A stretch of 64,000 bases of DNA from Eledone cirrhosa. Taxonomy: Eukaryota. The notes beneath the pieces are model-generated. The model was not told the origin of the DNA. It was given only the letters and a program-made list of their open reading frames with translations, and did no database searches. Made by a program: the position numbers and the translations under genes. The first letter of the stretch is position 1; each line of letters starts with the position of its first letter. The stretch covers positions 97,030,001 to 97,094,000 of the forward strand of contig OZ024746.1 in assembly GCA_964016885.1 (NCBI GenBank), in the 5' to 3' direction. Shown here one piece after another: positions 1,324-63,173 of this stretch.

Positions 1324-1637
1324 CATCATCATCATCATCGTTTAACGTCCATCTTCCACGCTAGCATGATTTAGACGGGAGTTGTGCCACTTGAGGCAAG
1401 GTTGTCTACACACACACATATATATATATATATATATTAATTTAGATTTGGTGATTCACCACTGGATGGAACTGGTCATTCCGTATAGTTAACCATGATG
1501 TAATATTAGGGAAAACATTCAACATTATGCAACTCATCCATCTTCGATGTTGAATCTAGTTGGTGGTGTGAGAACGGAGTTAATTATTATTGAGTAAAAT
1601 AACAGGAGGTGAGATTCCTTCAAAGATTTATTACAGC

Positions 1638-1699
1638 AGACACTATGTACATTTCAGTGACCAAGTTCAGTAAGATCCTGGTGACATCATCAGGTGTTT
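1638..1699 (-). ncRNA. Minimal type-I hammerhead ribozyme motif
   Basis: Reverse complement: AAACAC-CUGAUGA-U-GUCACCAGG...CUUGGUCAC-U-GAAA-U-GUAC-A-U-A-GUGUCU. Stem I 5 of 6 bp, palindromic GUAC loop III, AUA cleavage triplet. Position 10.1-11.1 is U-U. Confidence 0.7.
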
Positions 1700-1823
1700 A
1701 TTGCATAAAAGTTATATAATAAAGGAATAAAGGTAAACACAATCCAAGAGGCTTGGATTATGTTTTCTTAGCCTCTTGGATTGTATTTACCATTATTCCT
1801 TTATTATGTAACTTTTATGCAAT

Positions 1824-1885
1824 AAACACCTGATGATGTCACCAGGATCTTATGGAACTTGGCCACTGAAATGTACATAGTGTTT
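1824..1885 (+). ncRNA. Minimal type-I hammerhead ribozyme motif
   Basis: AAACAC-CTGATGA-T-GTCACCAGG...CTTGGCCAC-T-GAAA-T-GTAC-A-T-A-GTGTTT. Perfect 6-bp stem I, intact core, predicted cleavage after A1879. Confidence 0.75.
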
Positions 1886-1985
1886 GCTGTAATAAATCTT
1901 TCAAGGAATTTCACCAATCCGTCCTCCTGTCATTTTACTCAATAATATATATATATATATATATATATATATATATATATATATA

Positions 1986-2310
1986 TTGAGTATATGTTGG
2001 TTGTTTACCGACACCTCAGTATGCAGATTGCAGCACTCGACGAAGTACGCAGGTTGGTTTGTTTACTCCGGAGTAATGTAAAATAATTAAGTCAAATATG
2101 TAAAATTTGGCTTCGTTTATTATAAATTATAGATATACTGCTGTATATATTTTGGTGACAGCCATCATGTGCCACTGTCTTTCCCACACCAATTCGGACT
2201 GCCTGAAGAGGTCACAGCCAATGATGGCTGTCACCAAAATATATATAGCAGTATATCTATAATTTATAATAAACAAAGCCAAGTTTTACATATTTGACTT
2301 AATTATTTTA
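1986..2310. mobile_element. Fold-back hammerhead element, same family as 41148-41575
   Basis: About 95 bp of unique leader, then inverted arms 2081-2168 and 2221-2310, flanked by (TA)n on both sides. Highly similar to 41148-41575. Confidence 0.8.
2198..2252 (+). ncRNA. Hammerhead motif with G12A core substitution (likely inactive)
   Basis: ACTGC-CTGAAGA-G-GTCACAGCCA-ATGA-TGGCTGTCAC-C-AAAA-TATATATA-GCAGT. The paralog at 41460 has GAAA here. Confidence 0.65.
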
Positions 2311-2323
2311 TATATATATATTT

Positions 2324-2516
2324 ATAGGAAAATGTATGACCCCAATGGCAGAGCTGAAGCCGTTTCGACGGCTATTTCTGGATTGAAATAGCCGTCGAAA
2401 CGGCTTGAGCTCTGCCGTCGGGGTCATACATTTTCCTATTACCCACTCTACTACCCTAAGTATTGAGTACTCTGGTGCATCTGGTCCATCTGGTTCCTTA
2501 CCACAACTCCTTCGTT
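2324..2516. mobile_element. Short fold-back element (hairpin of about 55 bp plus tail) in (TA)n; second copy at 37668-37841
   Basis: ataggaaaatgtatgacccc...gacggctatttc|tggatt|gaaatagccgtc...ggggtcatacattttcctat followed by a tail (actctactaccctaagtattgagtactctg) also present in the 37668 copy and near 41773. Confidence 0.7.
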
Positions 2517-2723
2517 ATATATATAAATATATATATAAATATATATATATATATATAAAGTAAACATGTTGATTAATCGGGGTTGCATATGCAACACACC
2601 AATTAGTGAATAATCATGCAATTAGATTTAATTACTCAACGTCATGTATTTTCTTCAAAATATAATTTTTCAGTCAATGACGGAGTCTGTGTAGAGTAAG
2701 GAAAGTGCGAAAATTGGTGTCAA

Positions 2724-59372: not shown

Positions 59373-59522
59373 TCTGTAAGGGGAGATTACTCTATGATGC
59401 CCAATGGCACCAAGAGTATGTTAAAGATTAAAATGCTTGTTGTGTTGTATTGATTGTACAGCTAGTGAACAATGGGTAGATCTATGTTTTTCTATATCTT
59501 ATGCTTACTATATATGAAACAT

Positions 59523-59654
59523 TAGTAGTAGTGATAGTAGCAGTGGTGGTGGTAGTAATGATGGTAGTAGTGGTGGTAGTGGTAGTAGTAGTAGTGATAG
59601 TAGTAGTAGTGGTGGTGGTAGTAGTAGTAGTAGTAGTAGTAGTAGTAGTAGTAG
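59523..59654. repeat. (TAG/TGG)n trinucleotide repeat
   Basis: Visible run. Confidence 0.9.
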
Positions 59655-60563
59655 TCTTATGTTAGTTTCACTATTTCATTAATATATATGTTTTTTTTTG
59701 TTTCTAAATACAATATATAATCTAAGTTAGTTCGGTTTTGAATGACGGAGATCTGCTGAGTATGTAAATACTTGATACTTCTTTTCAACCATTTCTTCTT
59801 GATTTTCTTTTATTAAATACTGACTAGTCAATGCAATAATCTTAATGGTGTGTTCATCAATGAAGAATAGTTTATGTAATCATTTGGTCAGAGATCTACA
59901 GTAATCCTCTTTAGAAGAAAACTTAATTATCCATAACTACATTAGATAATACATTTCTTGCCAGTCGGCCATCAATGTCTTAGCTACAATGCACTGATAC
60001 CAATTTTTAGACTTCAGTTTTTTGGTAGATTTAATGTGGTTTGTCATGTCAGAATATCTCAATATATTTTGATGAGTACATTCTTCAGAAAGATAGGTAT
60101 TTTATGTACATTGTATCTACTACTTTATAGCATCTCCATACTGTTAGATTTCATCGAAAGTAAAATGATGTTTGACCCGTTCATTACCATATTTCTCTTG
60201 AAAACATTGCCATCGATTTTAAATTATTTTGAAAAGAATCAAGAATTAGGAGGGACTTAGTAGAATAACTGATTTAAAAAAATTAAGCTGGTCTTTAGAG
60301 TATAATCAACAGTTCTTAGATAGAATTGTGATGGAAAATATTTAGATAAATATAAACACTTTCAAATAAACAGCTTTGTGTTCTAATTTCAGAGCAGTTT
60401 TGGGTGGTTTGATATCAAATTGATCAACTCTTTTGATATCAAACAACTTGAAACTGTGCCTGGTTTTATAATACAAAACTATTTGATTTGAAGTGTATAT
60501 AATTATCTAAAAAGCTTCCATCATAATTTTATGAAAGAATGTCTATTTAGTTATATTCCAAGC

Positions 60564-60782
60564 TTAACACGTTAGCATTTAGACTAGCATTTAGACTGGC
60601 CATATCATGCCAGAATTTTCTCACTTCTTACTGGCCGAAACTAGCCACTCACAGTAATTGTAAGGTATTGTTCTCAAAATAAATAATATCAATATCTCAT
60701 AGATTCAATATTTTGTGAGATAAAGCTTTTATCGCGAAAATACAATAGTATATATAGAGTAATGTAAATGCTAAAGGGTTAA
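60564..60782 (+). mobile_element. piggyBac-type MITE
   Basis: Same body, ending TAAATGCTAAAGGG-TTAA. Confidence 0.78.
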
Positions 60783-62164
60783 CAATGAAAAGTTTGTTAT
60801 ATTCCTAAATTCTTTCAAACTCTTAAATATTTTCAAAATTATTTGAAAATAATAGGCAGCATCTTTCATTACAAATATTGTAGCAAAAGGGATAACAAAT
60901 ACTTTCAATATTTATTTGATATATTTAAAAATAATTTCTTATAATTTTATTTTTGTAGATTAATTATTTTTGCAGCTTAATAAAAAAAATAACGATTTCA
61001 AAGTAACATTTCTGGAAAGAGTAATAAATTCATAAATATCAAAAAAGAAAATTAGTAATAACCAACGAAATTGACAAAATTACTTTGTAGTTAATTTAAT
61101 TAGCATAAATGTAGAAATTGTTGAAAAACTTCTAGAAGGGCAATTAACTAATGGAAAATTAAATTTTGTTGATTAACAAATGAAATCTTAATATTAAAAG
61201 AAAGGTTATGAGGAATCTTCATGTCTCAGTTTTCTGTTAATATATTTCCCCCATCTCCTTCGATCTGTCTTTTTTCAATCTCTTCTTATTATACATACAC
61301 ACACCATATGCAAACAGTATATAAACAGTATATAGACATTTCAACTTCAGATTTTGCATGAATACTTTATCATTTGCAAGAAGCAACGAAAGTAGAAGAA
61401 TTGCTGATTCACACTTTGTTTTCAAGAAGCAACATTACCTAGTAGGTACACTAGTTGCTTTATATGTATAATTTTCTGCTTCTGCCTATAAGTTATGTAA
61501 CATTTCACTTTGAATAATTAGTGTCAATATGTCAAACATTCTTATTATTATGCAGCACATGAGTACTTAAGAGAATGTGTATGGTCTAAGCTTCATTGAT
61601 ATTTAGAACACTAAACATGTTTATTTATATGCAAATTCGTACAATATAAAAATAATTTTACATTAATTTAAGATTTACTGCTTAGAAACATTTACATGAA
61701 TAAGTAATTTTTTATAGTAGTAGGATATATATTTGGTCATATTAAATAAAATATTTTTACATATTTTTTATATATATGATTTAATTTGAAAATGTATAAG
61801 ATGATTATGAAAAATGAAATATTTCATGGAATTCTTGAATGGGATTCCACCCCTTCAGATGTATGATCTGTCTTTGATTATCATGGATGAGAACACTAAG
61901 GTGGCTGGATGATTAAACCATTTATATAAATTATTATACCTCCATAGGCAGAGGCACAATTTCACAATTTCCCTAGTTATGCCTCCATCTGTCTGTCTGT
62001 ATGAATGTATAAATAATTACTTTTGATTCGCTAAAAGTAGGCTGTTTCATCAATCAGTAAGCATTTGTCTTCTAAAACAAATTGAAGATCATCTATAATA
62101 AATTTTCTATGAACACAGCCCGGTAGCTCATAAGTAAATGATGTTGAAACAGCATAAAAAAAAA

Positions 62165-62985
62165 AATATATATATCAAAATCAACCATGGGGACAAAAGT
62201 TGCACCAACATATACACCAACCAGGTCATAGAATAGCATGAATTAAAGATCTGTGAACAATCCTCTCAAATTTATTTAAATAAAAACTGGAAAAGATTCC
62301 TGGATGACTGATTAATCTGGTGAAGGGAAAATCTTGAAAATTGTAACAATTTTCAAAATTGCATCCATAATATAAACCCTCACATCCAGTACTCTATAAA
62401 TTTCAGCCACAATAGGCTCTCCTTCATAGATATACTAATAACAAAAAGAAACACAAAACTAGAAACTTATATATATTTCAAAAATACCAACTCTTGACAA
62501 TACCTCCATTTTACATGGTTGCATCCAAAATACACCTGGACAAACAGTCAATTCGATTTAACAAAATTTGCATAATTATCTTAACTTTAACAGGAAGAGA
62601 CCATGGATTAGAGGGCATGAAAGAATACTAACAGAAAATATCCTTTATATTTAATCAATAATAGTATACAAAATGTAAAGCAAATTAACTCTCTAAAAAA
62701 GGAAAAATGGTTATACCATATATTTTGACTTTTAACCCAAAGAATGCCGAAATGTATACAAATATCTAAATAAACATACCAACATACCAACTAAGGATCA
62801 AAAGGTAAAAAACATCTTGGAGAAATATCCAAGGTATAATCACTAAAATAATTAATTAAACATCCTGAAGATAGTAAATGCAATTAAACAAACAGCTGGT
62901 GCAATTATAAAACGAACCCAGGACATTCTGAAAAGTGGTTAGCATTAGGATAAGAGTCCAACTATAAAAAACTAACTCAAATATG
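62165..62985 (+). pseudogene. Decayed Penelope-like element (PLE) reverse transcriptase
   Basis: TMGTKVAPTY (62184), WKRFLDD (62288), NINPHIQYSINFSHNRLSFIDILI...LETYIYFKNTNS*QYLHFTWLHPKYT and PYILTFNP. These follow the order of the PLE RT motifs MG...AP.YA, RYxDD, HP.IxFT, LPFLD, YLxxxSxHP and P.VxTYNP. Multiple stops and frameshifts. Confidence 0.85.
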
Positions 62986-63137
62986 GAACATATGGGAAAA
63001 TGAGCAAAACAAGGTTCTTTGACCAGTCAGATTTTGCACAGAAAACTGATGCAAAATGACAATGATATATATATATTTTTTTTTTTTTCCCAATTCCATC
63101 CTGCCCGTCCCCTTAATCTATTTTATTCCTCATTCTT

Positions 63138-63173
63138 TCTTCTGATGAAGGACTAGCGTCCGAAACGTTAAGA
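63138..63173 (+). ncRNA. Minimal hammerhead ribozyme in the putative pLTR 3' of the PLE RT
   Basis: TCTT-CTGATGA-A-GGAC-TAGC-GTCC-GAAA-CG-T-T-AAGA. 4-bp stem I, 4-bp stem II, extra A between positions 9 and 10.1, palindromic ACGU stem III. Confidence 0.85.

Follow-up and report, generated by a model that had tools for sequence, protein, structure and literature searches.

What are the small hammerhead-ribozyme folds that lie among the (TA)n tracts of a 64,000-nucleotide (nt) stretch of the Eledone cirrhosa genome (C6:97030001-97094000, called the window below)? This stretch of a 3.0-Gb animal genome is AT-rich, with many (TA)n tracts, and contains LINE (long interspersed nuclear element) fragments as well as a single Kazal-domain exon. 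A preliminary description had read the folds as a dense set of at least five unrelated families of non-autonomous elements with inverted arms, linked to Penelope-like elements (PLEs) or retrozymes and missed by annotation of open reading frames (ORFs). In our reading, the motifs are the 5'-truncated 3' ends of several PLE families, together with two companions that have no protein, and these type-I hammerheads are predicted to cut only as pairs in tandem transcripts. We give this a probability of about 0.85. The family letters (A-J) and the numbering of hammerhead positions are our own labels or follow convention.

Hammerhead motifs in the window and in the genome

A strict type-I descriptor found four motifs in the window (11024-11090, +; 41460-41516, +; 50621-50682, -; and 3545-3615, -), versus 0.01-0.02 on average and never more than 1 in shuffled sequence (300 dinucleotide shuffles for each of three block sizes). 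The relaxed descriptor found seven, gaining 4641-4683 (-), 4878 (+) and 63138 (+), versus 0.32-0.35 on average and at most 3 in the shuffles, and nine decoy cores run on the real sequence of the window gave 0-2 matches each. Both descriptors missed the family A motifs, 1638-1699 and 1824-1885, because stem II begins with U-U. The hammerhead motifs in the window are real, and their first description is borne out by these frequencies and by the covariation described below. Rfam 15 did not recover them, since no hammerhead was returned in three targeted scans or among the best 150 of 224 whole-window matches.

Is the window exceptional? In forty 10-kb stretches, taken at round coordinates of large contigs (399,800 non-N bases), the relaxed descriptor found 32 motifs, spread over 17 of the 40 stretches; the mean of 40 shuffles was 1.65 and the maximum 4. 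This extrapolates to about 76 motifs per Mb and about 2.3 x 10^5 genome-wide (Poisson range 1.5-3.3 x 10^5, which clumping widens), an estimate that leaves out families A, F and H and the U3-A8 variants. Because the sampled density is about 76 per Mb, the seven motifs in 64 kb are ordinary for this genome. The density is a property of the whole genome and not of the window.

The examined loci together gave 393 matches, which form 75 clusters, 16 of them with at least three members; a few clusters are look-alikes beside a true motif. About ten more recurring families are present in the sampled loci, with the canonical core or a compensated U3-A8 form and with H at position 17. The U3-A8 core variant (UUGANAA) was seen in several further PLE families, at loci L197, L198, L204, L160 and L216.

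Coding partners of the families

To which elements do the motifs belong? A GIY-YIG endonuclease fragment adjoining one copy of family E led to 16,761 first-look candidates. The E hammerhead was found in 25 of 30 loci, and in 23 of the 30 (one being the query locus) it lies downstream of the endonuclease match on the same strand, at 289-640 nt in 21 cases. The ORF has DKG, a CX2-5CxxC linker and, by sequence reading, a CCHH-type endonuclease. These features fit a place for family E behind a Neptune-like PLE ORF, with the clade assigned by motif. Just upstream of the family E copy in the window there is also a decayed, A-rich PLE reverse transcriptase (RT) fragment (62273-63060, +), which matches a Neptune-like ORF at 38%. 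The RT fragment at 62273-62566 was considered as the ORF of family E and rejected on its A-rich make-up; it is apparently unrelated.

For family D2, an endonuclease match lies upstream on the same strand in 20 of 25 loci, about 1.02 kb away. At locus L338 (C1:111375000-111384999), an open ORF of 821 amino acids stands between two hammerheads 3,689 bp apart, and an inverted copy adjoins. This ORF contains RLRWT, DKT, YRDD, CxCx5C, CxxC and CxH, motifs that define the Hydra clade (PMC8557442). By its motifs and by comparison by eye with reference proteins, D2 appears to be a Hydra-type PLE. Family B has the upstream endonuclease match in 10 of 25 loci, about 1.4 kb away, and its RT is 50% identical to that of D2 over 322 amino acids. 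For family D1 the match was found in two of three long loci, at 2.0 kb; no D1 ORF was seen in 25 short loci because none of these extends far enough. The B and D1 fragments have CxxC and CxH, and their linker is damaged. A family H motif lies 421 nt behind a PLE GIY-YIG ORF in locus L202. Pfam gave no match for the D2 ORF; the RT and GIY-YIG assignments come from the motifs, from BLAST to PLE fragments that match RVT_1 or GIY-YIG, and from PF26215 on homologues. The sole named homologue of a resident PLE protein is from Argonauta hians.

These results bear on the original proposal that all of the families are non-autonomous, retrozyme-like elements without a coding partner of their own. All copies in the window are non-coding, most copies genome-wide are short, and the proposal holds for family C and probably for family A, as described below. 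However, in B, D1, D2 and E the ends run on without a break from RT and GIY-YIG ORFs, each family at a constant distance, and one D2 copy is open over its full length; the proposal is already refuted for D2, E and B. Applied to all families it is very improbable. Of the seven families that were followed up, A and C fit the description as non-autonomous and missed by ORF annotation; B, D1, D2 and E carry RT and GIY-YIG elsewhere in the genome.

The non-coding families A and C

Family C is a unit of 432 bp (36% GC) with no ORF, arranged head to tail and starting at any phase, in runs of up to three hammerheads (locus L074). Forty of 60 copies continue upstream into the end of their own unit, and any upstream endonuclease match was found in 1 of 37 loci. 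Family C has the structure by which non-long-terminal-repeat (non-LTR) retrozymes are defined, a short, non-coding head-to-tail unit with one type-I hammerhead. The tblastn matches on this unit were to low-complexity, TA-derived peptide and were discarded. Family C occurs as many variants in run X1 and in three contigs of run X4, which were not used as support.

Family A, with 2,706 first-look candidates, is also a head-to-tail unit, which repeats every 2,777, about 2,440 or about 1,960 bp. The two units tested gave no PLE protein match and have a longest stop-free run of 83-93 amino acids, and three upstream walks reached the family's own tail, never an ORF. Family A probably lacks a coding partner of its own. 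A Hydra ORF 3.1 kb upstream of A in locus L377 was rejected as a partner; it is a separate insertion, with its own hammerhead and (TA)17 end.

Ribozyme core and stems

The type-I core, in the order CUGANGA, GAAA, UH, is found in families A, B, C, D1, D2, D3 and E; family F (GACA) and family H (CAGUUGA) depart from it. Because circularity was to be avoided, the set for covariation was gathered without a pairing filter. All stretches of the form CUGANGA...GAAAU(R)(Y)(R)(Y)AUA were taken from the examined loci, which yielded 197 distinct motifs, all from families A, B and D. At stem II pairs 2, 3 and 5-9 the two bases match in 83-93% of these motifs, with several Watson-Crick types at each, and at stem I pairs 1-5 they do so in 87-93%; these counts are not independent events because the copies are related, and slid controls were mostly lower, yet reached 0.7-0.9 at some AT-rich positions. 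Stem II pair 4 is paired in just 9 of the 197, with C-C in 144. The U-U that opens stem II in 37 of the 197 motifs is a trait of family A and not damage.

Families A, B, D1, D2 and D3 have in common an 8-nt self-complementary helix III and the mismatch of two pyrimidines at pair 4 of stem II. Their tails also share a motif, in that they open with ACUCC and contain GAGUGC; families C and E lack it. The families are thus not all unrelated, as they had first been described. The helix III sequences include AUAUAUAU (73 motifs), AUGUACAU (26), AUGCGCAU (19) and AUACGUAU (6), and AUAUGUAU (60 motifs) pairs by using two G-U; self-complementarity is kept through compensating changes. Family E has a G10.1-C11.1 pair and an extra base after A9, family B has the G-C pair without the extra base, and families D and A have G-U, A-U or U-U at this position. 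Of the earlier predictions, cleavage after A41511 and A1879 was correctly placed (A1879 by sequence reading), and the dimer-type helix III and the link to PLEs are supported.

In family F, GACA replaces GAAA in 20 of 22 scored copies (30 loci, L378-L407), and stem I is weak. The 5' core of family H is CAGUUGA in four of five distinct copies (loci L202, L301, L307 and L372), with a GUGA-capped stem II and an AUAUAU palindrome. The folds at 63305 and 52309 and at 10546-10635 had been taken as mere damaged copies, which does not agree with odd cores that recur family-wide. Damage or truncation was rightly described at 2198, where G12 is replaced by A, at 57614, a copy with 79% identity to family E, and at 25495, where just the 3' half is left, on the minus strand. 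The variant-core motifs of F and H may simply be dead; rare core variants of low activity are known (PMC3088659).

Could the motif instead be a folded signal for protein binding or packaging, with vestigial catalysis? The core departures in F (GACA) and H (CAGUUGA) and the U-U pair in A did not prevent spread, as the 2,349 first-look candidates of F and the 2,706 of A show, and anole hammerhead mutants insert normally in vitro (PMC11167929). However, about ten other recurring families have kept the canonical or compensated U3-A8 core and an H at position 17, and compensating changes preserve the self-complementarity of helix III. We consider vestigial catalysis unlikely.

3' ends and fold-backs

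The copies in the window are the following.

1438..1753, minus strand: long arm of the family A fold-back, with hammerhead 1638-1699 and a tail of about 150 nt reaching (TA)n
1770..1944, plus strand: family A short arm, with hammerhead 1824-1885, U-U at the base of stem II and a predicted cut after A1879; ends at (TA)21
1987..2168, minus strand: family B long arm, 5'-truncated within stem II; tail about 95 nt
2175..2310, plus strand: short arm of family B, whose hammerhead, at 2198, is damaged by a change of G12 to A
2744..2975, no single strand: an old fold-back of family G whose arms are 78% alike; the hammerhead of the plus arm, at 2904, has a long stem II
3218..3640, minus strand: family D2 long arm, with hammerhead 3545-3615; tail 3218-3310 separated by a later insertion
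3824..3891, plus strand: family D2 short arm, truncated inside the hammerhead
4379..4773, minus strand: family C long arm, with hammerhead 4641-4683; 3' end about 300 nt past C3
4779..5135, plus strand: family C short arm; hammerhead at 4878, stem I weakened
10531..10845, plus strand: family H, hammerhead-shaped, with variant core CAGUUGA; end coordinate by sequence reading
10864..10953, minus strand: family D1 inverted arm, tail only
10941..11138, plus strand: family D1 short arm, with hammerhead 11024-11090; terminates at (TA)n
25456..25520, minus strand: family J, truncated; the 3' core with its ACUUAAGU palindrome is all that remains
41145..41345, minus strand: family B long arm with tail
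41454..41577, plus strand: family B short arm, with intact hammerhead 41460-41516 and a predicted cut after A41511
50569..50720, minus strand: family D3 single short-ended arm, with hammerhead 50621-50682
52286..52415, plus strand: family F, decayed copy
57597..57693, plus strand: family E, decayed copy, 79-82% identical
63085..63262, plus strand: family E, putative single 3' end of a Neptune-like PLE, with minimal hammerhead 63138-63173
63281..63412, plus strand: family F, hammerhead-shaped motif with the family-wide GACA for GAAA

The elements are larger than had been described: A begins near 1438 rather than 1586, and C occupies 4379-5135. No further copy of family G was found among the examined loci. 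The later insertion in the D2 tail occupies 3311-3495 and has a 17-bp duplication on its flanks (3293-3310 and 3496-3512). Further short fold-backs without a canonical hammerhead core lie in TA tracts at 2333-2430, 3950-4015, 33697-33818 and 22054-22746; these are possibly PLE ends truncated within the tail.

Measured from C3, the 3' ends are two-peaked, at about +115 and +265 in A, about +105 and +200 in B and D1, about +100 and +190 in D2 and D3, and +248 and +304 in C; family E has a single peak at +120. A (TA)3 or (CA)3 tract adjoins the end of 72-88% of the distinct copies, versus 12% at random, with the reference ends themselves picked at (TA) or (CA) tracts. We found 85 outward-facing inverted pairs, five of which were set aside as tandem run-throughs. 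Among the remaining 80 pairs, 69 join a long and a short end, one has both long and 10 have both short, where 49% long-short pairs would be expected if the ends were independent (binomial p = 5 x 10^-12). The inverted arms claimed for these elements do not extend to the family at 63138 (E), with no fold-back pair among 76 copies.

An assembly artefact was rejected as the source of the fold-backs, since their arms differ by 4-9% and their ends are unequal. The TA-flanked inverted arms might also suggest DNA transposons of the MITE (miniature inverted-repeat transposable element) type with TA targets, or hammerheads that arise by chance in AT-rich hairpins. However, the fixed ends are unequal, single arms and direct tandems are common, copies join RT ORFs, and chance motifs are near zero in shuffles and decoy cores. 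This explanation has a negligible likelihood.

How does the inverted arm arise? If the elements are PLEs, it could be made by self-priming or fold-back copying of a single cDNA (complementary DNA), or from an antisense template, with the short end as a fixed stop. Antisense-template self-priming has been proposed for rotifer PLEs from palindromic junctions (PMC3846280), and some pairs here have near-perfect palindromic junctions, with a spacing below 60 nt in several D1 and D3 pairs; the arms are 91-96% alike. By contrast, many pairs have arms of very unequal 5' extent (up to 3.7 kb versus about 0.3 kb) and non-mirror junctions, and the enzyme of the anole uses two start sites when it extends the two strands (PMC11167929). 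We regard self-priming as rather unlikely.

Proposed mechanism

In the anole, the PLE protein acts on AT-rich DNA, of which it cuts the two strands, and begins at two sites inside the RNA, one at each border of the tail, with uncut RNA (PMC11167929). In the mechanism that we propose for the PLE ends described here, the PLE protein would cut (TA)n on both strands, and reverse transcription would start downstream of the ribozyme at two fixed positions, each serving one DNA end. The two cDNAs would stop early to give short arms, and the joining of their 5' ends would give the outward-pointing arms of the fold-back. All copies extend past the cleavage site, by 50-250 nt, so that the template must be either uncut at that ribozyme or re-ligated, that is, circular. 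The ribozyme likely releases unit-length RNA from tandem loci; minimal hammerheads are thought to act as dimers (PMC4209133). The lone and fold-back copies in the window are likely inert because they have no same-strand partner, and in a transcript that reads through them the motif would be paired with the antisense arm of its own copy.

Several points weigh against this interpretation. Self-cleavage at the NUH sites is predicted, and the case is made from sequence alone. Predicted two-strand folds of seven window motifs give a clear dimer helix III for A and D2 only, and partly for C. Minimal PLE hammerheads cut weakly in vitro, even as dimers (PMC4209133), the anole hammerhead needs protein and is dispensable for insertion in vitro (PMC11167929), and eight of nine frog retrozyme dimers failed to cut. 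The D1 link amounts to two loci, family F was linked to an ORF in 0 of 30 loci, D3 and F are tied to no ORF, and clades were assigned by motif rather than by tree. In locus L344 a cut-short Hydra endonuclease is fused into the body of A, and because of this fusion family A may derive from, or have, a coding partner. The pair counts are not a random sample and not fully independent, because the loci are top-scoring matches and the A and B queries are themselves fold-backs, and some D3 pairs mix subfamilies or sit 2-4 kb apart.

The mechanism of inverted PLE insertion and the role of the hammerhead are open questions (PMC8557442, PMC11167929). This genome is mainly a resource for them, with many families side by side and a countable rule of end pairing; the shared tail motif points to a start signal for the RT. 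In annotation, the short arms are likely filed as MITEs or as unclassified short interspersed nuclear elements, and Rfam misses them. A more ambitious joint reading is that the genome holds at least about 200,000 PLE hammerheads, which would include working non-canonical cores (CAGUUGA in H, GACA in F) as well as a subtype of Hydra in which the conserved C-C mismatch of stem II would be a new tertiary or protein contact. Family A, non-coding and 2.4 kb long, would then make use of the Hydra machinery through ACUCC...GAGUGC, on which the RT docks. Family C, with its unit of 432 bp, would be a retrozyme with a circular RNA that a PLE enzyme inserts, and the strictness of the long-short pairing would reflect a dimeric enzyme that primes at the two ends of a single break. 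All of this together is doubtful; if it is true, the open full-length L338 element would allow all its parts to be tested in vitro.

Other features of the window

An exon with EGF-like and Kazal_2 domains is present at 6454-6885 (-), presumably of an agrin- or follistatin-like gene; no second exon of it was found in the window or in the 10 kb on either side. A broken RTE-type LINE with RT and a PHD finger lies at 39965-41166 (-), and near-identical pieces occur in many loci. The segments at 34314-34676 and 56006-56437 (+), which have no Pfam match, we take to resemble the restriction-like endonuclease ends of R4/Dong-type LINEs, and 27797-28195 (+), also without a Pfam match, is presumably a fragment of a Tc1/mariner-like transposase. 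There are two unrelated 45-bp minisatellites, at 30832-31915 (24 copies) and 53387-55544 (48 copies), the second apparently built out of part of a common short repeat.

Comparison with known systems

Already in print for PLEs are minimal hammerheads in the pseudo-LTRs (pLTRs), genomes with many families, pairs on opposite strands, arms of which one bears a tail, and (TA)n targeting. The density, the C-C mismatch in stem II, the shared tail motif and the two family-wide variant cores are modest additions to this picture. In the literature searched, which covered few subscription journals, we found no report of the variant cores CAGUUGA or GACA, the C-C mismatch, the shared tail motif, an end-pairing count or a cephalopod hammerhead count; for a hammerhead survey of cephalopods, the only relevant paper found was PMC8557442.

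With the minimal pLTR hammerheads of PLEs (Cervera and De la Pena 2014, PMC4209133), the motifs share the type-I core, the tiny palindromic helix III, many families per genome with mostly single dispersed copies, opposite-strand pairs 100-700 bp apart, and the U3-A8 variant; family E resembles them further in its G10.1-C11.1 pair and in the extra base that follows A9. What sets A, B and D apart from these is their 8-nt helix III, the lack of an extra base and the conserved pyrimidine mismatch at stem II pair 4. The totals given there are about 9,000 for Xenopus and 4,000 for the coelacanth, set against about 76 per Mb here with a different descriptor.

Hydra-clade PLEs (Craig et al. 2021, PMC8557442) share with the D2 ORF the RW-, DKT, CxCx5C, CxxC and CxH motifs plus, at the C-terminus, a GIY-YIG without CCHH, and share with the families here a hammerhead near the 3' end, a (TA)n target and inverted, 5'-truncated copies. 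The partial tandem typical of PLEs, pLTR-ORF-pLTR with an adjacent inverted 5'-truncated copy, is present at L338. A fold-back with a tail on one arm is a known signature, and the published tails are 30-40 bp, versus about 90-155 nt here (PMC8557442). The clade tends to be 'generally under 3 kb' (PMC8557442), unlike the D2 unit of 3,689 bp, and the 3' non-coding parts here are 1.0-2.0 kb, which brings the units to 3.7 kb or more. An octopus Hydra element with a hammerhead, Hydra-1_Obim, is listed there; by eye, the window families match none of the approximately 30 Hydra-element hammerheads, Hydra-1_oBim included, in the available part of its supplement. With Neptune-clade PLEs, family E shares DKG, the CX2-5CxxC linker, the CCHH-type endonuclease and a minimal hammerhead, and differs in its single 3' end and lack of fold-backs (76 copies), with the clade again a matter of motifs.

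The anole Poseidon element PAc (Frangieh et al. 2024, PMC11167929) also has two fixed 3' ends downstream of the hammerhead, an AT-rich target and read-through of the cleavage site. Unlike those of PAc, the two ends here are 55-155 nt apart and used pairwise in fold-backs, as known from their sequences.

Animal non-LTR retrozymes (PMC7229834; bioRxiv 10.64898/2026.07.22.740005) share with family C a short, ORF-less head-to-tail unit with one type-I hammerhead each. The 2.0-2.8-kb unit of family A exceeds the 51-972 bp reported for them in these sources. Family C differs from animal retrozymes in its short arrays (at most three hammerheads) and in its direct marks of PLE insertion, namely two fixed 3' ends, an inverted arm and TA flanks. 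Retrozymes have been proposed to be non-autonomous derivatives of PLEs, and retrozyme-type units with such marks bear on the proposed mobilisation of animal retrozymes by PLEs.

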